Source of the DNA: Escherichia phage GertrudWoker_Bas73
Sequence record: PQ850603.1
DNA length: 43,856 nt
Reading direction: 5' to 3' (one strand)
Shown: one piece after another, positions 26,850 through 41,861 of the stretch
Layout: every line of letters starts with the position of its first letter
How positions within the stretch are numbered: position 1 is the first letter of the stretch
Notes under the pieces: model-generated
Database searches by the model: none
What the model saw: only the letters and a program-made list of their open reading frames with translations
Told to the model about the DNA's origin: nothing
Made by a program: the position numbers and the translations under genes

Positions 26850-27165
26850 TTCTAAATTCCTTATATTGTTGGGGTATGTGCTTACTATAATAGTCTGCTA
26901 TTAGGGTGTCAATCTGTTTTATCGAACCAACGACAAAAACATTTGCGCCACGTTTACGTATACGCTCGTGTTCCCGTAGCTGGTGCGGGTCTGGCTTAGT
27001 GTTTTCGTCTTTCTTCACCTCGACGAACCAGACGATGCCGCCGGGTAGAATTGCCAGCAGGTCAGGAGCGCCTGAACGTCCTTCGTAGGAAAGTTTACGA
27101 ACGAGGCCACCAATAGCCTCGAATCGCTCTTTTGCGTATTTCTGGATGCGGCCCTCTTTAGTCAT
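26833..27165 (-). CDS. VRR-NUC domain nuclease
   Basis: PD-(D/E)XK-like 'GAPDLLAI ... VWFVEVKKDEN'; ~110 aa. Confidence 0.6.
   Translation of the reverse strand: MTKEGRIQKYAKERFEAIGGLVRKLSYEGRSGAPDLLAILPGGIVWFVEVKKDENTKPDPHQLREHERIRKRGANVFVVGSIKQIDTLIADYYSKHIPQQYKEFRNETRI
26884..26912 (-). promoter_or_regulatory. sigma70-like promoter TTGACA-N17-TATAGT with AATAGtctgCTATT palindrome
   Basis: minus strand reads 'TTGACAccctaatagcagactatTATAGT'; lies inside the 3' end of the VRR-NUC ORF. Confidence 0.45.
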
Positions 27166-27314
27166 GACCGCAGCATCCAGGTAAGGAAAACCCAGCCTAG
27201 AATGGCAACACCGGCAAACTGAAAGAACAGGCCGTAACAGAACATAGCAGCTATTCCCGCACCGAGTAACAGTGCGAGCATGGTTACTATGGTCCTAAAT
27301 ACAAACATTGTCAT
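27162..27314 (-). CDS. possible small membrane protein (50 aa)
   Basis: RBS 'gaggggtg'; hydrophobic 'TMLALLLGAGIAAMFCYGLFFQFAGVAILGWVFL'; stop overlaps VRR-NUC start (ATGA). Confidence 0.35.
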   Translation of the reverse strand: MTMFVFRTIVTMLALLLGAGIAAMFCYGLFFQFAGVAILGWVFLTWMLRS

Positions 27315-27396
27315 AATACGCACCCCTCACGTTTCGTATGCTCAATCCCGCAGCGCGGGCAGATTCGGCAGTCTTCTTCATAAAACCAGTAAATTT

Positions 27397-27528
27397 TCAT
27401 TCCAGCACCCACATATAAATTGCGATGAACATGCCCAATATGGCAACCATCATGCCGTATTGTCCCTCGTGACAGTAGACACCGGCGGCAAATCCCGCCA
27501 GTACCGCGATAATCAGTTTACTTGGCAT
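27397..27528 (-). CDS. possible small membrane protein (43 aa)
   Basis: RBS 'gaaggag'; hydrophobic 'LIIAVLAGFAAGVY ... MMVAILGMFIAIYMWVL'; start overlaps HNH gene end. Confidence 0.35.
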   Translation of the reverse strand: MPSKLIIAVLAGFAAGVYCHEGQYGMMVAILGMFIAIYMWVLE

Positions 27529-28213
27529 CTCTACATTCTCCTTCAGGCCACCTATTAGGAAAAGACGGTATATGTGAAACTTCTCTCGCCGCTTTTATTC
27601 TTTTAATGGTGGGACCTATCTCCGTAACCATTTCAATGAATGTAAACCGGTGTCCTCTGGTAAGATTACATGTCTGACAACAAGAAACGCAGTTAGATAC
27701 TATGTGCCCGCTTGTATTATCTATGCGGTCTACCCCGACTTTTGTAGTGCTTCCGCAATAATGGCATGGCTGTGATATTAGTTTAATAACGCTTTCCAGT
27801 GTTAAATCGCAGATAAGCCCTTTTCCTGAATCTGCTCTTTTGTATCCTAACAAAAGCGCGTACGCCCGCGTCCTTTGGTCCTTATTCACCCGTTCCCTGC
27901 GTTGCTTGTTGAGACACTCCCGGCAATCTTTCCTGATATGAGAGCCATTACTTTTATTTCCTTTCCTGAAGTTTTCCTCTGTTAAAGGTTTTACCTCCCC
28001 ACACTTTCTGCATTTAACAGGCTTCCCAGTGAAAACATACCAAGGGCTTTCTCGTCTGGATTTACCTTGTAATTTAAGTTTTTCGTCATACTTTTCCTTC
28101 CTGTTAGCATTTACACACTCTTTACACCAGCGTTGCAGCCCGAGGCGCGTTGACTTTGAAAAATACTCTGTAGTCGCCGGTTTATCTTCGCCGCATCTTG
28201 AACACTTTTTCAT
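27518..28213 (-). CDS. HNH endonuclease (homing endonuclease-like) with N-terminal zinc-ribbon repeats
   Basis: 'CHYCGSTTKVGVDRIDNTSGHIVSNCVSCCQTCN' HNH motif; two 'CxxCGxxKP...CxECxN' repeats; AT-rich versus flanks; track start TTG 28225, ATG 28213 with GGAG RBS preferred. Confidence 0.7.
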   Translation of the reverse strand: MKKCSRCGEDKPATTEYFSKSTRLGLQRWCKECVNANRKEKYDEKLKLQGKSRRESPWYVFTGKPVKCRKCGEVKPLTEENFRKGNKSNGSHIRKDCRECLNKQRRERVNKDQRTRAYALLLGYKRADSGKGLICDLTLESVIKLISQPCHYCGSTTKVGVDRIDNTSGHIVSNCVSCCQTCNLTRGHRFTFIEMVTEIGPTIKRIKAAREVSHIPSFPNRWPEGECRDAK

Positions 28214-28223
28214 TAATAACTCC

Positions 28224-28259
28224 AAAAAAAAATACCGACATAGCCATTATATCGGTATT
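28224..28259 (-). terminator. terminator-like hairpin between polymerase and HNH genes
   Basis: minus strand: 8-bp stem 'aataccga/tcggtatt' with 13-nt loop followed by 'tttttttt'. Confidence 0.4.
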
Positions 28260-28290
28260 TACATTTTCTACAACGTATTTCCTAAATCTA

Positions 28291-30471
28291 CTACTTGGCG
28301 TATCTGTACATTTCGCTACCTTCTGCTACAAGAGGGAACCCCTCCGCCCACTCCGGTAATTCGCACATCAACCGCTCAAGCTCTGCAACATTGTATTCTG
28401 GCGTATCTGGTGTTTCGCAGATAATTTCGTCGTGTACGTGAAGCACAATAGGATAGCCGTTTGCTTCAACGTTCAGCAGTGCATTGGCCAGCAAATCACG
28501 GCACAGCGCCTGAGTACAGTTTTCCACGAGTTTACCAGAGTAGGTGTACTGGAAGCCCCACTGACGGGTTAACTGGTTCTCCCCCTGGTACTTGATGCGT
28601 ACGTTAGTAGACACTTTTCCATCTTCGTCTGTTTCTTTCGACACGCTTAACCCGACGCCCGGATAAGACATAACGCGACCCGACGGCAACGTCATGCGCA
28701 ACCACCAGCCGGCGACTTTGTTGCCGTTGTTGTCTGTCTCTACGTTGCGCGAAAACTTAACCCCCCTAGGCCCCGCGGTGAACTCTTTACCTGGATTGCG
28801 GATAGCGGCCATAGCTGCGTCTTCAATATCTCGCCAGAAAGCTACTGTTTCAGGGTGTGACTCTCGCCACATACGCTTGATAGCGTCACAGGTACGCCAC
28901 ACTTTCTTATCAAGAATATACGATGGTCGGTCATCCTTCTCCCCGGGTCGCGGCGGTCGCTTGGCTTCCTGAATACGTGCCCATTCATAGCCGCGTGCAG
29001 TAGCCGCCCAGATGTGGTCCGGGAAAGTACCGTCCATTGTTTTTGACATATCAACAAGGTCAAGTCCGAGGTTCTTAGCAAACTGAACGAAAGCGCCAAC
29101 ACCACCAGCGTAGCCGAGGCCAAGCTCGCAGGCTTTACCAATCTGGCGCAAGTCTTTGCGTTCCTTCTTAATGTAATCCGGCTCCATGCCGAACATCTTA
29201 CCCGCGGTTACACAGTAAATGTCCAGCCCGGCGCGGAACGTATCTAGCGCGGTTTCTTCGCCTGCCAGCCACGCAAGCCCCCGACCTTCAACGTTAGAGT
29301 AATCGGCGACGACAAACTTTTTTCCGGCTTCCGGGATAATGCAGCTACGCACCGTCGATGCCGTTAGCTTAGCGACATCGAAACGGCGATGCGCGCGGCC
29401 CTTAAGTAACGCTGAAATACCTTTATCCAGTTCATCATCGTGATAGTACCCACGCGCGAGGTTCTGCGGCTGAAATCCTTTACCGGCAAATCGTAATGTA
29501 CGCTTGGCTCCGCCGTACTGAATGCAACCACGACGGCGGTCGTCCGACGAGCGCCCTAACAGCAGCGGGTTATATTTCGTTGACGCTGTGGACGCGGCCC
29601 CGAGGCGCATTTCGATAATCGTGCGTGCGTCGTCCGGTAAATCATCATCCGCCAACAGGTCGTTAAGCGTAGACTTCTGCGCGTTGTGGATGCGGTGCGC
29701 TGGTGCAAGTTCACGCAGAATCGGCAGGAAGTCTTTACCAGTAAGCGAGCCGCCGTATTTGCGCTGTGCTTCTTCCTGTAGCTGGGCCTTGTGTTTTTCC
29801 ACGGCTTCAATCGCGGCTTCCGCCAGCGTCACATCAACCTTAAACCCACGGTCGTTAATCAACTGGTCCAGTTCCAGTACACGGTCTTCGAACTCGGAGT
29901 TACCCCAACGCGGCAGCTTATGGAAGACTTCACGCATCGCAGTGATGTCGCTCACGGCGTACATGATGAACATCGCCCACTCGTCAGGGTGAGTTTCTGC
30001 GGTGTAGCGGCGGATTTTGTAGTTCTTCGGCGTCGGTTTAGAGAAACGCTTAATCAGAGCCTTGCCGCGTTTATCTTTCGCGTTGTCTGCAGACACGCCC
30101 AGCACTTCGCACAGCGCATCAAGAGAACCCGGCAGCGCGTGACGGAACGCCCAAATCATAGTATCAATGGTGTTACTTACCGGAATATCAAAGTCCCAGC
30201 AGTGTTTCATGATTAGGCGATCGAAAAGTCCACCGTTGTGCCACACCATCTTGATGCGGCTGTTGGGCTTAACAAGGCGGCGCAGTGCGCGGTGTAAATC
30301 CCCCGGCATGTCGCTGCCGTCGGTGCAATCCCATACCCGCACAGGTTCGTCGTCAAAAGCATATGTACAGATAAGCACTTCTGTAGTTGGGTGTTCGGCG
30401 TAAGCGTAAGAGCCGACTTTCTTTAAATCGGCTTCGGAGAATGTCTCAAAGTCTAAGAACAGGTAACTCAT
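28291..30471 (-). CDS. DNA polymerase I (family A) with 3'-5' exonuclease domain
   Basis: Exo I 'FLDFETFS'; motif A 'DYSNVEGRGLAWLAG'; motif B 'RQIGKACELGLGYAGG'; motif C 'VLHVHDEI'. Confidence 0.9.
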   Translation of the reverse strand: MSYLFLDFETFSEADLKKVGSYAYAEHPTTEVLICTYAFDDEPVRVWDCTDGSDMPGDLHRALRRLVKPNSRIKMVWHNGGLFDRLIMKHCWDFDIPVSNTIDTMIWAFRHALPGSLDALCEVLGVSADNAKDKRGKALIKRFSKPTPKNYKIRRYTAETHPDEWAMFIMYAVSDITAMREVFHKLPRWGNSEFEDRVLELDQLINDRGFKVDVTLAEAAIEAVEKHKAQLQEEAQRKYGGSLTGKDFLPILRELAPAHRIHNAQKSTLNDLLADDDLPDDARTIIEMRLGAASTASTKYNPLLLGRSSDDRRRGCIQYGGAKRTLRFAGKGFQPQNLARGYYHDDELDKGISALLKGRAHRRFDVAKLTASTVRSCIIPEAGKKFVVADYSNVEGRGLAWLAGEETALDTFRAGLDIYCVTAGKMFGMEPDYIKKERKDLRQIGKACELGLGYAGGVGAFVQFAKNLGLDLVDMSKTMDGTFPDHIWAATARGYEWARIQEAKRPPRPGEKDDRPSYILDKKVWRTCDAIKRMWRESHPETVAFWRDIEDAAMAAIRNPGKEFTAGPRGVKFSRNVETDNNGNKVAGWWLRMTLPSGRVMSYPGVGLSVSKETDEDGKVSTNVRIKYQGENQLTRQWGFQYTYSGKLVENCTQALCRDLLANALLNVEANGYPIVLHVHDEIICETPDTPEYNVAELERLMCELPEWAEGFPLVAEGSEMYRYAK

Positions 30472-30486
30472 TATTTTCGACCCTTA

Positions 30487-30511
30487 GTAAAAAGGCCCAA
30501 TGAAGGGCCTT
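30487..30511 (-). terminator. hairpin terminator between SSB and polymerase
   Basis: 'aaggccc aatga agggcctt' flanked by A/T runs. Confidence 0.5.
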
Positions 30512-30530
30512 AGTTAAATTGATTCAGATA

Positions 30531-31157
30531 TTAACGGCGGCGACGTTCGCGGCGAGGTGCTTCATCTTCTTCGTCGTCTTCCAGGTCGTTGACGCTGGCG
30601 GCAACTTTAGAACCACCAAACGCTTTACCTTCGCCGACGTATTTAATTGCCAGCAGGTTAACACCGAGAACTTTGTATTTCTGGCTAAACCAGACTTCCA
30701 CGCTTACGTTGGCAACGCAGCCGCTGTAAACCTGTCCACCTTCAATCTGTTCGCCTTCAACGTTGAAGTCAGGCTCTACTTGAGTTTCACCTTTTTTAGA
30801 GGTTACAATCAGAGGCTGTTTCTGTGCCTTCGCTTTGAAGTAGAAGCCTTCCGGGAAGTCTTCGAACGGATTGTCGCGCTCGGCAATGTCTTTAATCGCA
30901 CATTTATCCATGTGCTTACCTTCGCCGTAGTTGGACTTCATCCATTTCTCGGCAGCGGCGGCGCCTAACGCTTCTTCGACTACCGCGTAAACGGTGTCGT
31001 AGAGCGCGTCGATTTGCGCGTGGTCGGACGGCAGGATAATAGTAGCGCTGTACTGACCTTTAGTGATTGAGCCATCGTCGTTTTCACGGTCTTTTTCGCG
31101 TTCGAATACGTTAACCCAGGCAGTGTTTACTTTACGCAGATTTAATTTCAGTCCCAT
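30531..31157 (-). CDS. ssDNA-binding protein (T7 gp2.5-like)
   Basis: OB-fold-like 'FYFKAKAQ', 'QIEGGQVYSGCVANVSVEVWFSQKYKVLGVNLLAIKYVGEG' resembling gp2.5; acidic 'DLEDDEEDE' then basic 'RRERRRR' tail. Confidence 0.55.
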   Translation of the reverse strand: MGLKLNLRKVNTAWVNVFEREKDRENDDGSITKGQYSATIILPSDHAQIDALYDTVYAVVEEALGAAAAEKWMKSNYGEGKHMDKCAIKDIAERDNPFEDFPEGFYFKAKAQKQPLIVTSKKGETQVEPDFNVEGEQIEGGQVYSGCVANVSVEVWFSQKYKVLGVNLLAIKYVGEGKAFGGSKVAASVNDLEDDEEDEAPRRERRRR

Positions 31158-31205
31158 TTGATTTCTCGCTTTTCAGTTTCAGTTTACTCCGGGATCTGCC
31201 CGGCC

Positions 31206-31234
31206 AGTGATTAGAACTATAATAGCTAACTATT
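31206..31234 (-). promoter_or_regulatory. sigma70-like promoter TTGACA-N17-TATAGT with AATAGctaaCTATT palindrome
   Basis: minus strand 'TTGACAcatgaatagttagctatTATAGT' ~45 nt upstream of SSB start. Confidence 0.5.
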
Positions 31235-31433
31235 CATGTGTCAAATAAAATTTTGCAATAGGGATTATGTTCTCGAAATTAAGCATATTGGCCGGTTCGA
31301 ACTCATCCTCTACAGGGTCGTATCGCATCATGGTACCGTTCAAGAACGTGAACGATTCCGAGTGTAGATACCCATCCCAGCGCCATACCATCAAAAAATC
31401 TTTATCAGTCGGCATTTCATTTACTTGAATCAT
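31230..31433 (-). CDS. hypothetical protein (67 aa from ATG at 31433)
   Basis: ATG overlaps exonuclease stop (ATGA) and is preceded by 'GAGGAGGA' SD formed by the exonuclease C-terminal codons; track start 31463. Confidence 0.45.
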   Translation of the reverse strand: MIQVNEMPTDKDFLMVWRWDGYLHSESFTFLNGTMMRYDPVEDEFEPANMLNFENIIPIAKFYLTHE

Positions 31434-32725
31434 TCTAAATCCTCCTCTGTAACTTGATTCCACTCAGGACGTGTGTCATCCGCCGTTGCGACGCATGGCG
31501 CACCGGGCTTACGGGTAATGAAGTCTTTCAGTTCTTCTTCCGGTACAATTTTAACCGCTTCGGTCGGTGTCATAAGAACTACCTTTTGCAGCATAGTACC
31601 GTACTTCTCGAATACTGCGTCGGTATCTTTCCACGCACGATTACCGGGGCGACCTTCAACCAGTTTGTATCCTGGCACTTTCTTACCTGAATGCAAAGCA
31701 GCAGCCATCGCTTTCTCAACCTTGTCGATGTGCTGGCGCAACAACGGCAGCTTCTCATACTCAGCGACGAGTTGCTCTGGCGTAAGTTCCAGCGCACAGT
31801 CGTCCTCAAGTTCTTCCGCCAGTACCGCGTTAACGGTTTTTGTACGAGCTGCGCACTGTTCCGAGAAACGACACCACTGACAACCATCTACCGACGGCTT
31901 GAAGTCCGACGCTTTAAGGTTCTTCTTGCCACGGGAATAAGCATCAAGGGCTAACAGCGCTCGTTTCCGCGCGAACTTAGCGAACAGCTCCAGACCTTCA
32001 ACCGAGATGTCCCATTCCGACGCGCCTCCAGCATACGGCTGGAAGATGACCAGACGAACCACGGTGATGTTATAACGTCTCTTGAGTCGGCGATAAACAC
32101 CGAGAGCGTAAAGCATAAGCTGCTTGTTTTCTTTCGCCTCGACACGATGCCGCCCTGTTTTCAGGTCGCCAATAATGAGCATGTGCTCGTCGGTGTTAGC
32201 CAGTTCCTGAACGGCAACAAGGTCAGCGGTTCCGAACGTCTCTAAATCATCTTCATCGCCGTCTTCGCTATCAATAGGTACTTTGTACCCTGGGTGCAAT
32301 ACCTGAGTAAGATTTACCCGCATTTCCAGCTTGGCGTAAGTCGCTACATCGATAATCGCCTTACAATAGTCAGTGTACTTGCGCACCTGCTCAATCATAT
32401 CCGCCGTAATCAGTACCGCGCCTTTCATTGGGCTGATTAGTGCCTTAATCTGGCCTTTACCCTCATCCAGCACGTAAGCACCGACTTCACGCTCTAACGG
32501 CAACGCAGTGCCTTTGATGTACTGGTTTAGGTGCATCTCCGCTATTGTGTGCATGGCCGTACCTAATACAGCAGCTTTACCCGACGTGTTAGGAATATCT
32601 TTTTCACAGGCCAGTGATGCGGCGCAGCTTAGCCACTTTTTAGCACCGGATGGCGACAATAAGGCGTGTACATCGTTATTACCGCCGCGTTCTTTAAGAA
32701 TCATTCTTCTACCCTCTCCACCCAA
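31430..32725 (-). CDS. PD-(D/E)XK exonuclease (Cas4/RecB-like, Cys cluster)
   Basis: 'IIGDLKTG' and 'NKQLMLYALG' nuclease motifs; C-terminal 'CQWCRFSEQC'; C-terminal tail 'TEEDLE'; start possibly at internal Met 7 codons in. Confidence 0.65.
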   Translation of the reverse strand: MGGEGRRMILKERGGNNDVHALLSPSGAKKWLSCAASLACEKDIPNTSGKAAVLGTAMHTIAEMHLNQYIKGTALPLEREVGAYVLDEGKGQIKALISPMKGAVLITADMIEQVRKYTDYCKAIIDVATYAKLEMRVNLTQVLHPGYKVPIDSEDGDEDDLETFGTADLVAVQELANTDEHMLIIGDLKTGRHRVEAKENKQLMLYALGVYRRLKRRYNITVVRLVIFQPYAGGASEWDISVEGLELFAKFARKRALLALDAYSRGKKNLKASDFKPSVDGCQWCRFSEQCAARTKTVNAVLAEELEDDCALELTPEQLVAEYEKLPLLRQHIDKVEKAMAAALHSGKKVPGYKLVEGRPGNRAWKDTDAVFEKYGTMLQKVVLMTPTEAVKIVPEEELKDFITRKPGAPCVATADDTRPEWNQVTEEDLE

Positions 32726-32809
32726 GCATCGTCAAAAGTATCAAAATCAGGATTATCGTATGCTGCGTACGCGTCATCTACATCCGAGTATCGACTGTGC
32801 TCGTAATCT

Positions 32810-33109
32810 TTACCGCCAATTGAGTACATAACTGCAAACATTCCGTACCTCCCACTGGTCAATTAAATGCCGTGTCTTATGGTCGCAGTGTAGGGCCCAG
32901 CCGTACATCGACTCGAAGACATAAAAGTCAGGCTTGGCGAAAGTCGTGCGCTTAATATGCGACACGTGACAGCCTATATCTTTGGGCCGCGGTACTTTGC
33001 CTAAGTACGCCATCTCTTCCATCTGGTGCGCACCTGACGGCGCACGTAACAGCCATAGCGCCTCTGTGTTATCCCGCCTGTCGACGGCGCGGTAGAGTTG
33101 GTAAATCAT
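32810..33109 (-). CDS. hypothetical protein
   Basis: 99 aa minus-strand ORF in replication operon. Confidence 0.4.
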   Translation of the reverse strand: MIYQLYRAVDRRDNTEALWLLRAPSGAHQMEEMAYLGKVPRPKDIGCHVSHIKRTTFAKPDFYVFESMYGWALHCDHKTRHLIDQWEVRNVCSYVLNWR

Positions 33110-33152
33110 AATTCAGACCCTCAGTTAAAGCGGCCCGAAGGCCGCGGGATAG

Positions 33153-33653
33153 TTATTCTTCTTCGAAATACTTGTTCTTGATTGCCGTCAGGCGTTCCAG
33201 GTATTCGGCCAGGTCTTCGTCTTTAATCGCGGCAATCTTCATCTTCTTACCGGTGAACTCTTCCAGCAGTTCATCAGAATCATCGCACGCGGCATCGCTC
33301 GGACCTTCGTTAATTGCATCGTCGATAGCCTGAATCTGGTCGCGCAGAGACTTATAGTCTACTTCTTCTTTCTCTTCTTCCGGCTCTGGCGTCGTTTCCT
33401 CTACTTTAGCTTTACGCGGCTTGCGTTTTGGCTTCTCTTCCTCCGCCGGTTTAGTGTCAACTACGTCTTCACCTTCAACCGGGATTTCTTTTGTTGCTTC
33501 TTCAGCGCACTCAGCTACCGCTTCTTTGGTGTACGATACCGTCTCTACTTCCAGCGGCGTGGCAACCTGAACAACTTGTTTCGCACTGTTCGCGGCAATC
33601 AGTTCGTGCGCAACTACGAAACGTTCCAGTAATACTAAGAATTTCTCTAACAT
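33153..33653 (-). CDS. hypothetical acidic protein
   Basis: 166 aa with Glu/Asp-rich stretches 'PEPEEEKEEVDY', 'DDSDELLEEF'. Confidence 0.45.
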   Translation of the reverse strand: MLEKFLVLLERFVVAHELIAANSAKQVVQVATPLEVETVSYTKEAVAECAEEATKEIPVEGEDVVDTKPAEEEKPKRKPRKAKVEETTPEPEEEKEEVDYKSLRDQIQAIDDAINEGPSDAACDDSDELLEEFTGKKMKIAAIKDEDLAEYLERLTAIKNKYFEEE

Positions 33654-33677
33654 TATTTATTCTCCTGTTTATTTGGG

Positions 33678-33905
33678 CTACTCGCCGTCGCCTTCTGTAA
33701 GGCTATCGTCTATTAATTCAAATTTACCGTTTGGGTGTTGAATAGCTTCTTGCCCGCAATGGTCGCAGACAACAAGTTTATCGAACCCATCAAACTCATC
33801 CCCTACTACGCAAGAAAGTACAAATTTATGTTTTGTGCACACTTCTTGCGGAGCGCCGAAAATTGCTCGAAAACCTTTAGCTATGGCCCCAGTGATTGTG
33901 TTCAT
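33678..33905 (-). CDS. small zinc-ribbon-like protein
   Basis: 75 aa with Cys pairs 'CTKH...C' and 'CDHC'; preceded by promoter 33934-33962. Confidence 0.45.
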   Translation of the reverse strand: MNTITGAIAKGFRAIFGAPQEVCTKHKFVLSCVVGDEFDGFDKLVVCDHCGQEAIQHPNGKFELIDDSLTEGDGE

Positions 33906-33933
33906 ATCTGCCCCTCTCGTTTGGTATGGGCTA

Positions 33934-33962
33934 ACTATAATAGCGAACTATTCACATGTCAA
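33934..33962 (-). promoter_or_regulatory. sigma70-like promoter TTGACA-N17-TATAGT with AATAGcgaaCTATT palindrome
   Basis: minus strand 'TTGACAtgtgaatagttcgctatTATAGT'; the same region on + strand carries 'TATAAT' facing the Cro-like gene. Confidence 0.5.
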
Positions 33963-34026
33963 TGGGCTTTTCTAAAATAATTAATATGGTACTATTCACA
34001 TATCAACTGACTAAGGAGTAATTGAC

Positions 34027-34242
34027 ATGCAACCATCTGAACTAGGCATCCGTGTAGAACAACGCCGCAAAGAACTCGGCATCTCCCAGCGCCGTTTGGC
34101 GGCCCTGACCGGCGTTTCCCAGGGCGCGATTAACCAACTGGCACTTGGAGTAACTCAGGACGTCCGCCCGGCAACGCTGTTCAAACTGGCGGAAGTTCTG
34201 GAAGTAGACGCCAAGTGGCTGGCGTTAGGTGAAGGGGCTTAA
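34027..34242 (+). CDS. HTH XRE-family (Cro/CI-like) transcriptional regulator
   Basis: 71 aa; 'ISQRRLAALTGVSQGAINQLALG' classic HTH; RBS 'aaggag'; only + strand gene in the leftward block. Confidence 0.75.
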   Translation: MQPSELGIRVEQRRKELGISQRRLAALTGVSQGAINQLALGVTQDVRPATLFKLAEVLEVDAKWLALGEGA

Positions 34243-34257
34243 AGCCCCTTTCTTTTT
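34233..34257 (+). terminator. rho-independent terminator after Cro-like gene
   Basis: 'aggggc ttaaa gcccct' followed by 'ttctttttt'. Confidence 0.6.
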
Positions 34258-34259
34258 AC

Positions 34260-36500
34260 CTATTCCAAATCCTCCTCTGTCACCACCAGCATCTCATTTG
34301 GTTCGTATAGTGTCTTCGGCCTTAATCTATCCCCTATTCTTTCGGGTATACGATATGTTCTCGGTACTACTTCGCCGTTAGCATCGCAACCAAGCATTAG
34401 TTCTCCATCTTTCAACATTTTATCAAGATGGGTGTTAGTCACAGAGAAGTCACCGGAACGAGCCACTATCTGCTGCTGAGTAAAACCGCGACCTGTGTCA
34501 TCTGACTGTTGCAGGTCTTCCAGTGCCGAAAGTATTGACTCCTTCCTTACTTCATCCCTGCCGCGTTTAACTTCTTCCTTTACTTTTTGCTTACCTTCTT
34601 TCGTCAACCCTTCTTCCCGCTCTTTCTCCTCGTCAGTTTTGAACGGCTCGAAACCCCACGGCATCAACACAAGCGCCTTGTGTGGTTCAGGAAGGTCCAG
34701 GTTTACGATTGTGCCGTATTCTTCTGTGCCCCCCAGGAACTCAACCGCACGGTACTCTTTCGGCGGCGGAGCTTCGCGGAACTGCACAGACTCCAGCACC
34801 ATGCCAACCGTTTTCTGTTGAGGACCGTGCTTAAATTTCGAGTGGTATACGTTTATTTGACGGTCGGTTGCACGTTCGATTGTCAGTTCCACGTCAACAC
34901 CCGCATACAGCGCCCCACTGCCGCGTGCTTTCTTTCCACCCTTCGGCGTATGGTGGACAACGCCTACTGCGGCTTTAGTTGCATCGCGTACTTCTTTCAG
35001 AATGGCGATAACTTTACCCATGCCGATTGCTGTTGATGAACTGTTCTCGTCGAACTTATCAATCGTCAGTGCCAGGGTCTGGTTAAGGGTGTCGAACGCA
35101 ACCATGCCAATTGGCTCGTCGCCAGCAGTTTCGCGCATTAACTTAATCAGGCTTTTAAGTTTGCCGACTTCGCCCATATCGATGACGTGTACATAATCTT
35201 TACCTTCCCCGCCATATTTAGCCGCTAGTGCATCAATACGGGTGCGTGTAGCTGCGCCACCCTCACCATCAATATAGAAATGGTGGCAACGCTGGGTATC
35301 CGCCCCCGCAAACCTGTACCCGGCGGCGCTGAGGTACATCATCCCCAGCGTATAGAACGATTTGTACGTGCCAGATTCCCCGACGATATCCCAGATACAA
35401 TCCGACGGCATGTACCCCTCAACGACGAAATCAGCCTTTACCGGCTCCGGTAACTCGTCCTCCTCTGGGTCCTCGTCGCCTTCCAGGTCGTCGAGGCTGC
35501 ATGAAACGGATTCACGTACACCCCAACCGATGGCCTCGGCGACTTCACTGAACGGCAGCCCGGTCGCATCGCACGCATACTTCCACACCTCTTTAGGTGA
35601 CATGCCTTCGGTTGCCGTAATGTCGGTGTCGTGAATCATGGTTACGTTCGGCGCTTCGTACCCCTCGCGCGGGAAGCACAGCAGGAAGTCATCCGGGCGC
35701 GGGGTCGGGTCGCTGTAGTTCTCGGCATGTTCCGGCGTAGCTGGCATTTTCAGGCCGCGTGGCGTCATGATGCCGCCGTACTCGAACGCCAGTGCTTCAA
35801 ACGCATCGGTAAACGCGGTGCGCAGTTCTTCTGGTATCTGGTAGTCAGATGCGCTGCTAACGTCAACGGCGGGGATACCTTCCAGTAGCTCATCCGGGTC
35901 AATCAGGTCGTTGCGGCGCGACCAGATAACGGTAGAGCCGACCGGAGGCAGGTACATCGGCTGGGACAGCGTAAACCCGCTGCGGTCGGCGCCCATGCCT
36001 TTGAAGAAGTGCTCCAGCAATCCATGACGAACACGGATGATGTCGCCGCCTTCGACCGGGCGGGCCAGCGGCATGACGACGCGAAAGCGCGGGGACTCGT
36101 CGGTATGTGACGCCGTGGTATATAGGCACATCGCCTGGCGGCTGCGCTTAACCAGGCGCACAGCTTCCTGATACTCTTCCGGCGTTGCACTGTCGAAGTC
36201 CAGATACGCCAGCGACGATTTGCTTACAGACGCGTCACAGCGATAGAAGAAGCCTTTACGCGCCTGCTTAAAGTCTCCAGTTTCCAGGTCTTTTACGGTG
36301 CTGTGCGTAGAGTCGCACGCGGCTGTGATATAGCCGGGGGCGGTCTTAGGGTTAACACCGTCACGAACAGCATCAAGCGGCTGGATTAACTCTTTCAGGT
36401 CGTCCAGTGTTGCCGTGTGTGTGGTTCTGACGTTTATATCCTTTTTCTCTGCCCGCGCGTTGCGACGTGACCACGAGTAGGATAAAATTACATCGGACAT
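34260..36500 (-). CDS. DNA primase/helicase (RecA-like ATPase with N-terminal primase-like region)
   Basis: 746 aa; Walker A-like 'VGESGTYKS'; 'VAFDTLNQT ... VVHHTPKGG' RecA-like core; C-terminal tail 'TEEDLE'. Confidence 0.6.
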   Translation of the reverse strand: MSDVILSYSWSRRNARAEKKDINVRTTHTATLDDLKELIQPLDAVRDGVNPKTAPGYITAACDSTHSTVKDLETGDFKQARKGFFYRCDASVSKSSLAYLDFDSATPEEYQEAVRLVKRSRQAMCLYTTASHTDESPRFRVVMPLARPVEGGDIIRVRHGLLEHFFKGMGADRSGFTLSQPMYLPPVGSTVIWSRRNDLIDPDELLEGIPAVDVSSASDYQIPEELRTAFTDAFEALAFEYGGIMTPRGLKMPATPEHAENYSDPTPRPDDFLLCFPREGYEAPNVTMIHDTDITATEGMSPKEVWKYACDATGLPFSEVAEAIGWGVRESVSCSLDDLEGDEDPEEDELPEPVKADFVVEGYMPSDCIWDIVGESGTYKSFYTLGMMYLSAAGYRFAGADTQRCHHFYIDGEGGAATRTRIDALAAKYGGEGKDYVHVIDMGEVGKLKSLIKLMRETAGDEPIGMVAFDTLNQTLALTIDKFDENSSSTAIGMGKVIAILKEVRDATKAAVGVVHHTPKGGKKARGSGALYAGVDVELTIERATDRQINVYHSKFKHGPQQKTVGMVLESVQFREAPPPKEYRAVEFLGGTEEYGTIVNLDLPEPHKALVLMPWGFEPFKTDEEKEREEGLTKEGKQKVKEEVKRGRDEVRKESILSALEDLQQSDDTGRGFTQQQIVARSGDFSVTNTHLDKMLKDGELMLGCDANGEVVPRTYRIPERIGDRLRPKTLYEPNEMLVVTEEDLE

Positions 36501-36558
36501 GTTGTATTTCCTTCAGCAAGTAATTTGGCCTCGGCGTTCACCGCGTCGGGGCTTTCTT

Positions 36559-36792
36559 TTATTCCAGGTCTTCTAAAGTAGCGGTCATTCCGCGAACTTC
36601 AGCAACAGCACTATATTTCCCGCCAACATTTTTCACGACACCGGATTTAACCAGTACCTTCAACGACCCTTCAATAATGGCTGAACTATAGTACTTAAAA
36701 TAACTACGGCGCAAGTCGATAACGCTGCACGACCCTTTTTTACGTGTTAACGAAACGACCGCCGTAAATACGCGTGACTGGAACTCGGTCAT
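36559..36792 (-). CDS. hypothetical protein with C-terminal 'TLEDLE' tail
   Basis: 77 aa; stop-start overlap with upstream HTH gene. Confidence 0.45.
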   Translation of the reverse strand: MTEFQSRVFTAVVSLTRKKGSCSVIDLRRSYFKYYSSAIIEGSLKVLVKSGVVKNVGGKYSAVAEVRGMTATLEDLE

Positions 36793-37019
36793 TTCACGTT
36801 CTCCTTAATCCACGCTTCCACTTTCTCCGGGTCAAACGTACCTGGCTGACGGCGGCCCATAATGCGAATACAACAATCCGGGAACTTCCCACTCTTTAAC
36901 CAGTTATTCAGCGTTCGACGAGTAACCCCGATACGCTCAGCTACCTCATTCTGCGTCATTCTCAAACCCTCATTATCAGTTAACGAAACAAGTATACATT
37001 GCGAATAATGGGAAATCAA
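36789..37019 (-). CDS. small HTH DNA-binding protein (AlpA/excisionase-like)
   Basis: 'MTQNEVAERIGVTRRTLNNWLKSGKFP' HTH; likely start at internal ATG (36959) with RBS 'gaggg'. Confidence 0.5.
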   Translation of the reverse strand: MISHYSQCILVSLTDNEGLRMTQNEVAERIGVTRRTLNNWLKSGKFPDCCIRIMGRRQPGTFDPEKVEAWIKENVK

Positions 37020-37306
37020 ACATAATCACACCTATTGACATTATGAAAATCTTCGTTTAAGGTGCTTCTATATCTTAGTTACTTTGATTCTTGTTCACCT
37101 TGTAAAACCGCTTAAAACGCAGCTGCGCGCAGCGCAAGCAAAGTGTTAAGCGCAAGTTTACTGAACACGAGAATTAGCGTAACTTTCCTTCCTAAGTATC
37201 TTCGGTTGCCCTGGGCAAGCTCTATTCTCATCGGCAGCATATCTCTTAAGTATCTGATTTTCTTAATGTGCCGCAGATTCGCAACCGTAAAAATGTAACG
37301 ATTATT

Positions 37307-37332
37307 GGGCAGGCTTAAGGCCTGCCCTTTAG
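37307..37332 (+). terminator. GC-rich hairpin, possible weak terminator in control region
   Basis: 'gggcaggc ttaag gcctgccc' followed by 'tttagtt'. Confidence 0.35.
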
Positions 37333-37399
37333 TTACCAAGTAATAAGAATAATGGCACAACCATACCTGAAGAATCACAACGGCAACGTAACTATTCTC

Positions 37400-37428
37400 T
37401 TGCACACCCCAACATAATAGGATACTAT
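37400..37428 (+). promoter_or_regulatory. sigma70-like promoter TTGCAC-N17-TACTAT with AATAGgataCTATT palindrome
   Basis: 'TTGCACaccccaacataataggaTACTATtcac' 25 nt upstream of the 37454 start. Confidence 0.5.
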
Positions 37429-37453
37429 TCACTTATCGAAACGAGACAGAGGG

Positions 37454-37654
37454 GTGAGGGTTATGTTTAAGAAGGGTCAGTTGGTGAAAACGATGTACGG
37501 TAGCTTCGGTATTATTGAAAAGAAATCGACAGTGTACCGAAGTTCTTATGTCGTTAGCTTACTCAGGGAGCACGGGTTAAGTTCCGCAGCGTATTACCGA
37601 GAGTATGAAATTAAACTCATCGGCAACAATTTTAAATTCAAAGGGGCGAAGTGA
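37454..37654 (+). CDS. hypothetical early protein
   Basis: 66 aa; RBS 'gaggggtgagggtt'; first gene of rightward early block. Confidence 0.45.
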   Translation: MRVMFKKGQLVKTMYGSFGIIEKKSTVYRSSYVVSLLREHGLSSAAYYREYEIKLIGNNFKFKGAK

Positions 37655-37842
37655 TGGAAGAATTAATTTACGACGTATACGTCGACGGGGTTATCTCAGA
37701 GACGACAAGTAATAAAGATTACGCAATAAAGCTGTATGTGTATTACGCCGCAGAGGTAGGAAGGATGGTCGAAGTGCGGGAGCAAACGGCATCGAATCAT
37801 GATGCTCGTGCCGACGACTCTGATGGAGGTTGCCGTGAATAA
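37651..37842 (+). CDS. hypothetical early protein
   Basis: 63 aa; ATGA overlap with upstream gene. Confidence 0.45.
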   Translation: MMEELIYDVYVDGVISETTSNKDYAIKLYVYYAAEVGRMVEVREQTASNHDARADDSDGGCRE

Positions 37843-38059
37843 TATTTTAATTGTGGGGGCTGATATGAGTCCGTATAACGAATTCCGCTTACGCCGTCTG
37901 ATTGGCGGTCTGCGCGCCGCCGAGTTTGGTGTTGAATGCTGGGAAAAGGCGAAGTACACCCCGTGGAAGTCGTGGCATTTGGCTCACGCTAAGGCGGTAG
38001 CGCAGTACCGGGGGTACAAGTTAAACAGTTTCCTTAAACACCATGGGGTTGAGTTATGA
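37835..38059 (+). CDS. hypothetical early protein
   Basis: GTG start preceded by 'ggagg'; track ORF starts 37799. Confidence 0.4.
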   Translation: MNNILIVGADMSPYNEFRLRRLIGGLRAAEFGVECWEKAKYTPWKSWHLAHAKAVAQYRGYKLNSFLKHHGVEL

Positions 38060-38199
38060 GAGAAGCATTTGAACGTTGGGCCGTCGTCGAGGGGCTGCCA
38101 GTTAACAAGGGTTCGAAGAAAGAGTACCTGAACGTTAAGACGCGTCTCGCGTGGCGGGCGTGGAAAGCGGGTGTGCAGTATGCGATGAATACGAGGTGA
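38056..38199 (+). CDS. hypothetical small protein (47 aa)
   Basis: ATGA overlap with upstream stop; below track cutoff. Confidence 0.3.
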   Translation: MREAFERWAVVEGLPVNKGSKKEYLNVKTRLAWRAWKAGVQYAMNTR

Positions 38200-38202
38200 G
38201 AT

Positions 38203-38403
38203 ATGGGTAAGTGGATTAAGTGTAGTGAGATGCTACCAGGTAACGGTAGCACTGATAAAGAGTTCCTGGTGTATGAAACGTTGAATAACGCAGTGCAGCA
38301 CGATTATTACATCGTTCCTGATGACGGGAGAAAGCCGTTCTGGAATCACTATGATAAGTACGTGACGCACTGGATGCCGTTACCTGAGCCGCCGGAAGTG
38401 TGA
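38203..38403 (+). CDS. hypothetical early protein
   Basis: 66 aa; RBS 'acgagg'; Trp-rich 'WNHYDKYVTHWMPLPEPP'. Confidence 0.45.
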   Translation: MGKWIKCSEMLPGNGSTDKEFLVYETLNNAVQHDYYIVPDDGRKPFWNHYDKYVTHWMPLPEPPEV

Positions 38404-38527
38404 TGTTCAATAGTTTGGGATTTTACCGAGTGACTTACGCTGCTACACAGCAGCGTATCATTTTTCTCATTTTTGTTCTATTTCACCAAACGCAACAATC
38501 GAAGCGACTATTGCAGGAGATGCAACA

Positions 38528-38698
38528 ATGAAACTGAATGACATCGTGACCTGGACTGGTAGAAACGGAGAAAAACGATTCGGGCTTATTGTTGCGTCAA
38601 ACGGCAACAAGTACCGTGTTATGCGATGGCGTCAGTGGGCACGCTGCCCGAGGTACTACTGGATTCGCAGTGAACGATTATCTTTAAAACGCCAATAA
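38528..38698 (+). CDS. hypothetical small protein (56 aa)
   Basis: RBS 'gcaggaga'; below track cutoff. Confidence 0.35.
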   Translation: MKLNDIVTWTGRNGEKRFGLIVASNGNKYRVMRWRQWARCPRYYWIRSERLSLKRQ

Positions 38699-38705
38699 AG
38701 TTTAC

Positions 38706-38734
38706 TTGCACGCTAGGATAGAATAGGCTACTAT
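38706..38734 (+). promoter_or_regulatory. sigma70-like promoter TTGCAC-N17-TACTAT with AATAGgctaCTATT palindrome
   Basis: 'TTGCACgctaggatagaataggcTACTATtcat' upstream of the 38766 ORF. Confidence 0.45.
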
Positions 38735-38765
38735 TCATTTACACGAACGAGAGGAGCGACAGAGG

Positions 38766-38879
38766 ATGTACAGCGAATTTGATTTGTGGGACGTGGTTCT
38801 TATATGGGCCTCCGGGGAAGATGTTGTTTGCGACGGTGACACATTAAGTATCGTATGCGAGGAGCCAGAAGATGAGTAA
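38766..38879 (+). CDS. hypothetical small acidic protein (37 aa)
   Basis: RBS 'agaggag'; stop overlaps next start. Confidence 0.3.
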   Translation: MYSEFDLWDVVLIWASGEDVVCDGDTLSIVCEEPEDE

Positions 38880-39417
38880 CAAAAACGAAGTATTCGAGTA
38901 CCTGATTGACCAACTACGGCAGCAGCTACAAGTCGTAGATGTAATGGGTGAGATTGAACGGTGGAGTATCGACCGTAGTATCGCGGGTCGCGGTAACTAT
39001 ACCGACGAGGAAAACGCCGTAATCGACGCTTACATCGGACTGGAGCACAACCCGTACAAGCAACAGTGCGAAGACCTGGCGCACGAGGTGCAGTCACTTA
39101 AGAATCAGCTACGTGATATGTCGGCGCAGATTAAGGAGTTGCATCTGGCGTTGGTCAAAGCTACGGGCGACGTAGAGGCGTACAAACTTATCCGCAAAGG
39201 TGGGTACGTTTCCGCAGGCCAGCGCTACGTGGTTGGCGAACATGCGCCTGGGCCAACGGTAAATTGTCGGTGCACCCAGACGCCTGTACCGCCGGAGCAA
39301 TCTGGTTGCCGTAAAGAGGATACCCAGGAATGGCCCTACCGTTTCTATTATGTAGTGACAGATGGCTCCGCGCCGTTCGGTACGAAAGTATGTAAAACGT
39401 GCGGGGGATACTTCTGA
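38872..39417 (+). CDS. hypothetical protein with C-terminal Cys cluster
   Basis: 181 aa; 'CRCTQ...C...CKTCGG' possible zinc site. Confidence 0.45.
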   Translation: MSNKNEVFEYLIDQLRQQLQVVDVMGEIERWSIDRSIAGRGNYTDEENAVIDAYIGLEHNPYKQQCEDLAHEVQSLKNQLRDMSAQIKELHLALVKATGDVEAYKLIRKGGYVSAGQRYVVGEHAPGPTVNCRCTQTPVPPEQSGCRKEDTQEWPYRFYYVVTDGSAPFGTKVCKTCGGYF

Positions 39418-39620
39418 TGACCAGCATCTTATTTATCTGGGTACTGTCCGCAGGCCAGATGCACCTGGCGGCATCAGAAACGTTTTACTCGATGGAGGCG
39501 TGCCAGTCAGCGGCACGCGCCGCTGAGAACGCGCACTTTCTGTTTCAGGGTGACAAGCCCAACGATTCAGAGGTACGCGCTATCTGCTCACCTAAGCGAC
39601 TTGGAAAACAGGAGAAATAA
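39417..39620 (+). CDS. small secreted/membrane protein
   Basis: ATGA overlap; N-terminal hydrophobic 'MTSILFIWVLSAGQMHLAA'. Confidence 0.4.
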   Translation: MTSILFIWVLSAGQMHLAASETFYSMEACQSAARAAENAHFLFQGDKPNDSEVRAICSPKRLGKQEK

Positions 39621-39621
39621 C

Positions 39622-39825
39622 ATGGTACAGAGATATTCTAAGTATGGGTCCGACAACCATTTCATTGACCGCCACGGGAAGTGGGTTAAGTTTGAGGACT
39701 ACCAGAATCTTGACCTAAAGCTGTTGGAAGTTGAAGCCGAGTTACAGAAATACAAGGACCAGTTCCCGGATTACGTCGAGTGCGCGAACTGTGGGTCAGT
39801 TACACATGTGGAGGGGGTGGAGTGA
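39622..39825 (+). CDS. hypothetical protein
   Basis: ATG with RBS 'caggaga'; C-terminal 'CANCGSVTH'. Confidence 0.4.
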   Translation: MVQRYSKYGSDNHFIDRHGKWVKFEDYQNLDLKLLEVEAELQKYKDQFPDYVECANCGSVTHVEGVE

Positions 39826-40118
39826 TGTCGTTAGCAACTGACATCCTGAAACGAAGCGGCCTTGCGCCGCTGTCACCGAGAGCGAAGACACGTATACACA
39901 AGCGTCGCCGTAACGTGCTGTACCCAGAGATACAAGAACGGCGTAAAGCTATCCGCGCCTGTGGATTCCAGAACGGAAAGGCCGTGAATCTCGGTGAGTT
40001 TAAAACAAAGGAACGCGCAGCTATCGCGAACCGGCTATTTAATTACTGGAAATCGCTGGGGTACGATGATATTCCGACGAAACCACAGAGACGACAATAC
40101 ATCTGGAGACATAAATGA
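39825..40118 (+). CDS. possible AP2-like DNA-binding protein
   Basis: ATGA overlap; basic; 'GKAVNLGEFKTKERAAIANRLFNYWKSLGY' loosely resembles AP2-type domains. Confidence 0.3.
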   Translation: MSLATDILKRSGLAPLSPRAKTRIHKRRRNVLYPEIQERRKAIRACGFQNGKAVNLGEFKTKERAAIANRLFNYWKSLGYDDIPTKPQRRQYIWRHK

Positions 40119-40555
40119 CTACTATCGCGTTTGACGGAAAGACAATGGCCTGTGATACCCGTGTTGTGTGCGGGAGTAACTGTTACAACACAGACACAAA
40201 GATATACGAGAACGAATTTGTTGTTATTGGGGCGGCTGGCGATGCAGGGGTTGGTATCCTTTTAGTGGAGGACGATAGTATTTTAGTGCCTAAGCACTAC
40301 GATTTTGATTTCTCTGCCTTGGTGTGGGTTAAAGACATCGAAACGTTGTGTAGGGTGGAGTTCTATAAATCTTGGGATTGTGCTCTTAGTTTGGTTATTC
40401 AGATTGCGGACAGCTTTTCCGCCGTTGGTTCAGGCGCCCCTTATGCCCTAGCGGCTATGGAATGTGGGTATTCGGCGCAAGGTGGTGTAGCAGTTGCATC
40501 GAAGTTCGACCCTGACACCGGCGGCAAGATTATTACCAAACAACTATTAGGATAA
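40115..40555 (+). CDS. HslV-like N-terminal-nucleophile hydrolase (proteasome beta-like), compact
   Basis: 'MTTIAFDG' with Thr right after Met; 'VVIGAAGDAG' and 'AVGSGAPYALAAME' match recalled HslV signatures. Confidence 0.5.
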   Translation: MTTIAFDGKTMACDTRVVCGSNCYNTDTKIYENEFVVIGAAGDAGVGILLVEDDSILVPKHYDFDFSALVWVKDIETLCRVEFYKSWDCALSLVIQIADSFSAVGSGAPYALAAMECGYSAQGGVAVASKFDPDTGGKIITKQLLG

Positions 40556-40614
40556 TTCCTACCCGTGGTATCCTCCAGTTACTGCATACTTAATACGCAC
40601 CTGGAGGATTCATC

Positions 40615-40923
40615 TTGGATAAATTTACTGAAACAGTGACAGGCTGGCTTCTGGCTGCCGCACTAGCCGGTGGGGTAATCGGACTGCGACAACATAAGTC
40701 CGCTATTTCTGGACCTATCGACGGCTTCTGCTTTATCGCAACTGGCTTCACCTGCGCCGTATTTGGTGCACCTCTCGCCGCTCAATGGTTTGGTATTACC
40801 GGCGAACGCGAGATAGCTGGCCTGGGCTTCATTATCGCTATTCTCTGGATGCCTATCTATTCCCGTCTCTCCGGTATCGTCGCAGGAGAATACATCTCAC
40901 GTCGAGGAGGCCCGGATGAATGA
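40615..40923 (+). CDS. holin
   Basis: 102 aa with three hydrophobic helices and charged C-terminus; TTG start after 'ggagg'; upstream of endolysin. Confidence 0.55.
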   Translation: MDKFTETVTGWLLAAALAGGVIGLRQHKSAISGPIDGFCFIATGFTCAVFGAPLAAQWFGITGEREIAGLGFIIAILWMPIYSRLSGIVAGEYISRRGGPDE

Positions 40924-41188: not shown

Positions 41189-41278
41189 TGGACTTACCGC
41201 AGATAAGCTGCGCGAGGTTTTACACTACGACCCCGATACCGGAGTTTTCGCGAACCATAAATTACGGGAAGGTGCTTT

Positions 41279-41764: not shown

Positions 41765-41828
41765 CACCTGAGACTAATCCGACGATACTTAAATCACCTC
41801 CTGTTCCATACCTCTGCTCTCCAGTTTT

Positions 41829-41861
41829 ATCCCGGCCCTGACCCAGCCGGGATTTTTTTTT
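41829..41861 (+). terminator. strong rho-independent terminator after endolysin
   Basis: 'atcccggc cctgaccca gccgggat' followed by nine T. Confidence 0.75.

Follow-up and report, generated by a model that had tools for sequence, protein, structure and literature searches.

In the 43,856-nucleotide genome of Escherichia phage GertrudWoker_Bas73 (sequence record PQ850603.1; this whole stretch is referred to here as the window), three leftward promoter-like sequences of the form TTGACA-N17-TATAGT carry the same 14-bp palindrome, AATAG-N4-CTATT, within their spacers. The three sites are best read as host sigma-70 promoters. Regarding the palindrome, we favor, with a probability of approximately 0.55, the reading that it is an operator bound by a dimer of a 71-amino-acid (aa) 434-Cro-like protein that represses these promoters. 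We infer from the DNA sequence that the sites are transcribed, that the candidate regulator binds them, and that its binding is repressive.

A pattern search of the window yielded exactly three exact TTGACA-N17-TATAGT sites, all on the minus strand (ORF, open reading frame):

33934 to 33962, minus strand: Pzn, TTGACA-N17-TATAGT; upstream of a 75-aa ORF, a 166-aa ORF, and the exonuclease block.

31216 to 31244, minus strand: Pssb, TTGACA-N17-TATAGT; upstream of the genes for a gp2.5-like SSB, DNA polymerase, and endonuclease VII and the genes that follow.

26884 to 26912, minus strand: P63, TTGACA-N17-TATAGT in the last codons of the resolvase gene; upstream of a 63-aa ORF, a DNA methyltransferase, and a helicase.

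When one mismatch was allowed, the count remained three against 0.23 expected, and none of 100 shuffled sequences reached three (0/100). The original prediction, made from the letters of the window, had reported this minus-strand motif at three places, and all three were recovered; its interval for the middle site (31206 to 31234) was 10 bases off and is corrected here to 31216 to 31244 (31221 to 31234 being the palindrome). Two sigma-70 promoter scans were carried out, covering positions 1 to 20000 and 24000 to 43856, and the three sites were the top matches in both. Each agreed with TTGACA/TATAAT at 11 of 12 hexamer positions and had a 17-bp spacer, within the 17 ± 1 bp typical of sigma-70 promoters (17 or 18 bp in relatives). 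Leaders of approximately 22, 52, and 28 nucleotides (nt) lead to ATG codons with Shine-Dalgarno (SD)-like sequences, and the three promoters were retained in 36 IMG/VR loci and in phages RP180 and SETP3. The hexamer matches, orientation, distance to start codons, and conservation thus support the earlier proposal that sigma-70 promoters would drive leftward replication operons at these sites.

Regarding the genes downstream, the SSB gene (30531 to 31157; gp2.5-like), the 63-aa gene (26658 to 26849; a member of phrog_4879), and the position of P63 within the 3'-terminal part of the VRR-NUC/resolvase ORF (26833 to 27165) were as originally described. The "zinc ribbon" assigned to the first gene, however, could not be verified; the 75-aa ORF (33678 to 33905) has four Cys residues and no Pfam match. 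The RefSeq record of SETP3 contains an annotated promoter (32242 to 32267) upstream of its SSB gene that is homologous to Pssb.

The original claim that each spacer holds the same palindrome was likewise borne out. In all three spacers, AATAG-N4-CTATT lies at approximately −25 to −12, and its final T doubles as the initial T of the −10 hexamer (PWM, position weight matrix):

33939 to 33952: putative operator in the spacer of Pzn at approximately −25 to −12, AATAGTTCGCTATT when read on the minus strand; PWM score, 22.6 bits.

31221 to 31234: putative operator AATAGTTAGCTATT in the Pssb spacer; PWM score, 22.7 bits.

26889 to 26902: putative operator AATAGCAGACTATT in the spacer of P63, inside the resolvase coding region.

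Seven exact and four one-mismatch copies of the palindrome were present in the window (1.04 expected), and it was the most over-represented palindrome of the 5 + gap + 5 type in the genome (seven copies; null maximum, three). PWM scoring yielded seven strong sites (20.9 to 24.8 bits), all located at promoters, and four weaker sites, with null maxima that averaged 12.3 bits and peaked at 17.3 bits. As in operators of the 434 type, the palindrome has twofold symmetry, half-sites separated by roughly one helical turn (here, 9 bp between their centers), well-kept outer bases, and a free center.

Given its closest relatives in a megablast search with positions 24000 to 40000 (i.e., NTEC3, SCS92, and the BASEL isolates Bas70 to Bas74; 90 to 96% identity; 530 phage records matched), the window is, by sequence similarity, a Kagunavirus-like virulent siphophage genome of approximately 44 kb (subfamily Guernseyvirinae). 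An IMG/VR scan with the SSB protein provided 36 Kagunavirus-like loci with 10-kb flanks, and RP180 (a Raoultella phage), SETP3 (a Jerseyvirus), FSL SP-031 (a Cornellvirus), and one Dhillonvirus were also compared (locus numbers such as L003 refer to this set). Homologous promoters were aligned via flanking similarity and not via the motif, and 100 unique sequences were counted. The left half-site was exact in 97 and the right half-site in 98 of these, compared with 73 for the −35 TTGACA and 91 for the −10 TATAGT. The central 4 bp occurred in 6 to 10 variants per promoter, and the stretch from the −35 hexamer to the palindrome varied in sequence and had a length of 4 or 5 nt. The original prediction had proposed comparing palindrome and hexamers in relatives and would have counted conserved hexamers with a lost palindrome against itself; the outcome was the opposite, with the palindrome better kept (97 to 98% versus 73% and 91%).

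The same pattern was evident at individual promoters. Among unique Pzn homologues, the −35 was kept in 31 of 32 and the −10 in 32 of 32, with half-sites exact in 32/32 and 31/32 and six variants of the center; among Pssb homologues, half-sites were exact in 34 of 35 with eight variants of the center. In Kagunavirus loci that reach the homologous promoters, the palindrome was found there (with occasional one-mismatch copies), as it was in SETP3, whose SSB is only 76% identical to that of the window. In diverged lineages, including SETP3, the hexamers drift to TTGATA, TTGCAT, and TATATT while the half-sites hold.

P63 provides the clearest view of selection, as this promoter lies within the last twelve resolvase codons. 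The two Tyr codons of the right half-site were TAT TAT in all cases (66/66), and the codon that ends the palindrome center had a third-position C in 33/33 while its amino acid varied (D/N/S/G/H/R). Synonymous positions in the half-sites are therefore fixed while the center alters the amino acid; it is the DNA, and not the protein, that is under selection here. The end of this gene (26833 to 26884) also differs among genomes: most relatives stop it right after the −10 (TAT AGT TAG/TAA), and the window and Bas74 read TATAGTAAG there, with one T fewer, so that the ORF is longer by 18 codons and runs into the start of the 63-aa gene.

Two further observations concern the surroundings of Pssb. Upstream of it (31245 to 31300 and homologues in L001 to L039), relatives carry wholly different sequences, with at least four unrelated versions; since the conserved block begins exactly at the Pssb −35, a module boundary of the mosaic seems to lie at the promoter-operator. 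A hairpin in the SSB leader (31155 to 31209) was considered as a structured element and rejected, its conserved stem being no more stable than shuffled sequences (z = −0.18).

The most likely reader of the palindrome is encoded next to Pzn:

34027 to 34242, plus strand: candidate regulator, a 71-aa XRE/Cro-C1 helix-turn-helix (HTH) protein, divergent from Pzn; Pfam HTH_3, E = 3.9e-13 (above cutoff).

This gene is the sole rightward gene in the leftward block, starts 65 bp from the promoter at 33934, and is followed by a terminator-like hairpin (34231 to 34251). Among proteins of solved structure, the nearest to its product by sequence are an engineered 434-repressor variant (1sq8; E = 4.8e-6), 434 Cro (8.5e-6), and the 434 repressor DNA-binding domain (1.1e-5); the alignment with 434 Cro, also 71 aa long, joins residues 6 to 68 to residues 4 to 64. 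A single-sequence AlphaFold2 model (mean predicted local distance difference test score, 81) has the five-helix XRE fold, and Foldseek matched it to HipB, C.BclI, 434 Cro, SinR, and P22 c2, all of which are dimeric operator binders. The HTH_3 domain, the 434 Cro match, and the XRE fold together place the product among Cro/C1-type HTH proteins. The gene was found in every fetched relative that covers the locus, with 92 to 100% identity in most Kagunavirus loci (78% in L003), 48% in SETP3 (gp43), and 43% in FSL SP-031 (gp15), and it occurs in 536 phage records under various names (i.e., repressor, Cro, or DicA). In the Bas74 record (L001), positions 13326 to 13541 encode a protein 100% identical to that of the window; the regulator gene is missing from the annotation, which at this location lists nothing but a 31-aa ORF of the opposite orientation (Bas74_0048).

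Outside the Kaguna- and Jersey-type genomes, AATAG-N4-CTATT was absent from both FSL SP-031 and the Dhillonvirus; the Dhillonvirus also had no XRE homologue and is therefore uninformative for this comparison. FSL SP-031 (L040) contains TATTA-N6-TAATA inside TTGACA/TTGCAA-N17-TAATAT promoter-like sites at 14066, 26544, and 33280. These three copies do not exceed the null maximum of three, and at the SSB promoter the spacing is not the same; the sequence may be the operator of a diverged Cornellvirus regulator (recognition helix, TQSAISH).

Among the small proteins scanned, clear DNA-binding domains were limited to two, the HTH_3 domain of the candidate regulator and an HTH_17 (excisionase/MerR-like) domain in the product of 36789 to 37019 (E = 4.8e-7). 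The palindrome might be the operator of another phage protein, i.e., the HTH_17 protein, whose gene lies in the divergent early control region, a NinH-like protein (43416 to 43676), or an unrecognized small early protein. MerR-like proteins do bind promoter spacers. However, MerR-type activation requires spacers of 19 to 20 bp, whereas those observed here are 17 to 18 bp, and HTH_17 proteins of the excisionase type are usually monomeric binders of direct repeats. Moreover, the HTH_17 protein is variable (64 to 100% identity among relatives), and in L028 unrelated genes replace it although all palindromes are kept, while the NinH match is weak and falls below the Pfam cutoff. We thus consider another phage protein to be a rather unlikely reader. 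In a Kagunavirus RNA-seq time course (PMC12645636), only four genes peaked early, one of which has an HTH domain (K1B4_008) and may correspond to either of the two HTH genes described here.

The palindrome is not confined to the TTGACA-N17-TATAGT family. The other four exact copies belong to promoters of the form TTGCAC (or TTGCGC)-N17-TACTAT, designated the first family, in which the palindrome lies at approximately −19 to −6 and its right half is the −10 itself:

37400 to 37428, plus strand: first-family promoter TTGCAC-N17-TACTAT; palindrome at 37416 to 37429 over the −10, 24.8 bits; conserved in relatives.

38706 to 38734, plus strand: first-family promoter TTGCAC-N17-TACTAT; palindrome at 38722 to 38735, 23.3 bits; conserved in relatives.

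5161 to 5189, minus strand: first-family promoter TTGCAC-N17-TACTAT; palindrome at 5160 to 5173, 23.9 bits; upstream of a 67-aa ORF (4930 to 5133); kept in RP180.

14285 to 14313, minus strand: first-family promoter TTGCGC-N17-TACTAT; palindrome at 14284 to 14297, 23.9 bits; upstream of a 108-aa ORF and a DNA repair exonuclease; kept in RP180 and SETP3.

In both families, therefore, the palindrome overlaps the promoter core, and the two registers are 6 bp apart, which agrees with the earlier remark that the palindrome is placed differently relative to the hexamers. The sequence evidence also supports the earlier suggestion that a single regulator could serve both classes, which it might do with different strength or timing. 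Contacts with RNA polymerase alone cannot explain one palindrome in two such registers. A TTCACC-16-TATAAT sequence at 14285 to 14258 was judged to be a chance match and rejected, its −10 falling between SD and ATG.

Weaker copies of the palindrome were detected at three further promoters:

33983 to 33996: degenerate palindrome AATATGGTACTATT (one mismatch) over a TACTAT −10 upstream of the 71-aa regulator gene; 18.9 bits; invariant in Kagunavirus relatives.

41879 to 41912, plus strand: TTGACT-N17-TATATT promoter with its −35 within the one-mismatch palindrome ACTAGTTGACTATT, 14.4 bits; kept in RP180 and SETP3.

5251 to 5284, plus strand: TTGACT-N17-TAAGCT promoter (TGn extended −10) with its −35 within the one-mismatch palindrome AATAGTTGACTTTT, 16.0 bits; upstream of the spanin gene; kept in RP180.

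SETP3 has, at the place of the first of these, a TTGCAC-N17-TACTAT promoter with a two-mismatch palindrome (ATTACTGTACTATT). The presence of a degenerate palindrome over the regulator's own promoter in the window and in its SETP3 counterpart suggests, from this layout, that 33983 to 33996 may be an autoregulation site. In the intergenic region of the regulator (33939 to 33996), the centers of the exact and degenerate palindromes are 44 bp apart, compared with 55 bp in SETP3 (L038, 34479 to 34547); the 11-bp difference is approximately one helical turn and therefore hints at a helical-phase constraint. The −35 of the regulator promoter is good in SETP3 (TTGCAC) and missing in Kagunavirus (CTTTTC), and an alternative Kagunavirus promoter, TTCACA-16-TAAAAT (33951 to 33978), abuts the Pzn −35 back to back.

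Regarding the two TTGACT promoters, both of which precede late-side genes, their −35-embedded palindromes possibly represent a third operator register. The SETP3 counterpart of the palindrome at 41879 has its mismatch on the other half, and the counterpart of 5251 to 5284 in the fBC-Eco01 listing is host promoter HP1 (PMC9825357). A further one-mismatch palindrome, TATAGTATGCTATT (3357 to 3370; 17.3 bits), directly follows a terminator hairpin, its sequence overlapping the start codon (ATG) of a 358-aa head-morphogenesis ORF. No promoter hexamers were evident at this site, which RP180 retains. Four leaders from both families also share AACGAGA(G/C) 7 to 14 nt 3' of the −10, just before the SD (33915 to 33921, minus strand; 37440 to 37446, 38746 to 38752, and 41925 to 41931, plus strand). 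Since the heptamer AACGAGA was not enriched genome-wide (eight copies versus 5.4 expected), it may be mere shared leader/SD context.

In a different reading, the palindrome is a positive promoter element for an activator or for a phage-modified host RNA polymerase. The program PHIRE finds seven copies in such phages, reported in two genome papers as promoters of a phage RNA polymerase (PMC9825357; PMC7203180), i.e., as phage-specific promoters. The hexamers of the first family match the consensus at only about 7 of 12 positions and might need help, and the palindrome at 33939 to 33952 would be centered near −40 of the possible regulator promoter TTCACA-16-TAAAAT. The TTGACA-N17-TATAGT family, in contrast, matches at 11 of 12 positions, which would make an activator unnecessary, and a protein centered at −18.5 or −12.5 would sit where sigma-70 must bind. 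Twofold symmetry and varying registers are also unlike a polymerase recognition sequence. Finally, no RNA polymerase gene was annotated in Bas74 (partial), SETP3, or RP180. On balance, we judge a positive element to be unlikely.

Differences among regulator alleles offered another way to link protein and palindrome. The recognition helix reads SQGAINQ in Kaguna-type and SQSLITH in Jersey-type regulators (four of seven positions differ). In Jersey-type loci (L015, L020, L032, and SETP3), all 30 bases just outside the half-sites were T (TAATAG...CTATTA). The palindromes of Kaguna-type loci were consistently asymmetric in their flanks, most sites having G beside one half (134 G and 154 T; TGAATAG...CTATTAT). 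L015, L020, and L032 combine a Kaguna-like SSB (96 to 97% identity) with a Jersey-type regulator (48%), which is evidence for probable module exchange between Kaguna- and Jersey-type genera. Their Pssb sequences nearly match those of Kaguna-type twins through the −35 and the leader, in two sequence backgrounds, and differ from the twins in having a flanking T instead of G and in the center. RP180, from Raoultella, has a Kaguna-type protein and G flanks; the flank therefore tracks regulator type and not a simple E. coli/Salmonella split. This covariation of flank and allele supports the 71-aa protein as the probable reader of the palindrome.

The same data bear on the idea that the phages exploit a site of a host (enterobacterial) transcription factor. 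An identical core is found in E. coli, Salmonella, and Raoultella phages although their regulators are only 48% identical, which speaks for a host factor. Nevertheless, the bases flanking the palindrome vary among the homologous promoters, and the flanking base follows the phage regulator type, the Raoultella phage included. Furthermore, of 55 loci newly fetched from IMG/VR with the composite of operator and −10, 48 were Kagunavirus-like, and the other seven, which have no −35, appear to be chance hits in AT-rich sequence. We know of no E. coli regulator whose sites match the palindrome, the CRP (TGTGA) and ArgR (TGAAT) half-boxes both failing on the second half. A host factor is thus an improbable reader. 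More improbable still is that no protein reads the palindrome and that a shared promoter cassette of approximately 20 bp spread by duplication or recombination and was kept as a module-junction mark or spacer-structure tuner: the conserved block does start exactly at the −35 below mosaic sequence, and Kagunavirus copies share an asymmetric 18- to 20-mer in either orientation, but fixed half-sites with free centers and neighbors over 100 sequences and two genera, including synonymous sites within a gene, are typical of sequence-specific recognition and not of hitchhiking.

Under repression by the Cro-like dimer, the three sigma-70 promoters would start successive leftward units (i.e., the 75-aa ORF to the exonuclease; SSB, DNA polymerase, and resolvase; and the 63-aa ORF, methyltransferase, and helicase). 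A phage-encoded HTH dimer, most likely the product of 34027 to 34242, would occupy AATAG-N4-CTATT and block RNA polymerase. Since a dimer centered at −18.5 (TTGACA-N17-TATAGT family) or −12.5 (TTGCAC family) covers the DNA that sigma-70 contacts, repression by occlusion is expected. The same protein would act on the identical palindrome over the −10 of the four TTGCAC-N17-TACTAT promoters and would bind more weakly at its own promoter and at the two TTGACT promoters. Made early and accumulating, the regulator would turn down most phage promoters, with affinity graded by site quality and register.

Several points weigh against this model. The asymmetry of the Kagunavirus palindromes is not explained by a simple symmetric dimer, and a second HTH protein exists (36789 to 37019). 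Only about two independent events underlie the flank covariation, which host genus partly confounds. The correspondence between helix and site is not clean, because the Kaguna and Jersey helices differ at four of seven positions yet share the AATAG/CTATT core, and the Cornellvirus homologue (43% identity) occurs without the palindrome. Lastly, if every strong promoter were repressed, the switch-on of late genes would be left unexplained.

A broader version of the model, which we hold to be doubtful, is that one Cro-like protein with operators in three registers (over the −35, in the spacer, and over the −10) constitutes the whole timing circuit of a virulent subfamily without a polymerase or sigma factor of its own. 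As the palindrome at 33939 to 33952 is centered near −40 of the possible regulator-gene promoter TTCACA-16-TAAAAT, the circuit might include positive autoregulation resembling that of lambda PRM, and operator flanks would co-evolve with regulator alleles. If true, such flanks would define "regulatory specificity groups" among the module-exchanging Kaguna- and Jersey-type phages.

The annotations of three relatives (complete for SETP3 and RP180, partial for Bas74) show the overall layout of the genome: rightward structural genes, a leftward replication/recombination block at approximately 24.3 to 37.0 kb, and, past 37.4 kb, small rightward genes together with the lysis cassette. Within the Pssb unit, a strong terminator-like hairpin (28230 to 28260, minus strand; 13-bp stem and T-run) is located between the DNA polymerase and endonuclease VII genes and is possibly an attenuator that splits the operon.

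The motif itself has been listed before. In the fBC-Eco01 (Kagunavirus) paper, seven PHIRE sites (PP1 to PP7; consensus, tgAATAGTa-ccTATTat-T) were called phage RNA polymerase promoters (PMC9825357), and seven PHIRE promoters were reported for vB_EcoS-Golestan (PMC7203180). PP1 to PP7 are the same motif at homologous places, and of the TTGACA-N17-TATAGT family they include the P63 homologue only. The fBC-Eco01, Golestan, and SETP3 listings mention neither the palindrome nor the embedding sigma-70 hexamers nor the regulator, and the searchable literature describes no transcription program for Guernseyvirinae beyond gene-level RNA-seq time classes. The present analysis offers a predicted regulon of at least seven promoters with a named candidate regulator and corrects the published annotation of "phage RNA polymerase promoters". 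Guernseyvirinae (Kagunavirus and Jerseyvirus) rank with the phages most frequently isolated for therapy and biocontrol, and the BASEL collection paper describes Kagunaviruses as attractive models for synthetic biology. The interest lies in a dispersed, multiregister regulon in virulent phages and in the naturally occurring exchange of G for T in the flank along with the regulator allele, a ready specificity experiment.

Among known systems, restriction-modification controller (C) proteins share the fold and size of the regulator (Foldseek matches, C.BclI, C.AhdI, and C.Esp1396I), bind palindromic promoter sites, and autoregulate. In contrast to C proteins, the regulator has no restriction gene beside it, the orphan methyltransferase of the phage is encoded at a distance of 7 kb, and many promoters carry a site. 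In function only, the proposed circuit would resemble the turn-down by lambda or P22 Cro, in which a small early HTH dimer on early-promoter operators lowers activity; the fold of lambda Cro is not that of the regulator, and sequence similarity to P22 c2 is weak (E of approximately 5e-3).

The closest likeness in both protein and site is to phage 434. The regulator has the 71 aa of 434 Cro, a single HTH domain, and no C-terminal domain; its gene is divergent from a promoter that it is predicted to regulate, and the gene's own promoter holds a weaker site. The 434 operators (OR1 to OR3 and OL1 to OL3) are 14 bp long with conserved outer and variable inner bases, and the sites described here are likewise 14 bp, twofold symmetric, conserved in their outer bases, variable at the center, and overlapping sigma-70 promoter cores. 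The half-site (AATAG versus ACAA) and the recognition helix (SQGAINQ versus KQQSIQL) differ, and the sites are single and scattered over at least seven promoters in several registers relative to the −35 and −10, whereas those of 434 form triplets at two control regions. A cI-type partner and an integrase were not annotated in the three relatives used for the layout (Bas74 in part), and only one XRE gene was found; there is therefore no lysogeny module of the lambdoid cI-cro immunity type, and this phage group is described as virulent. A Cro-like operator switch has most likely not been described previously for this phage family, and the mechanism itself would be textbook Cro/operator logic.

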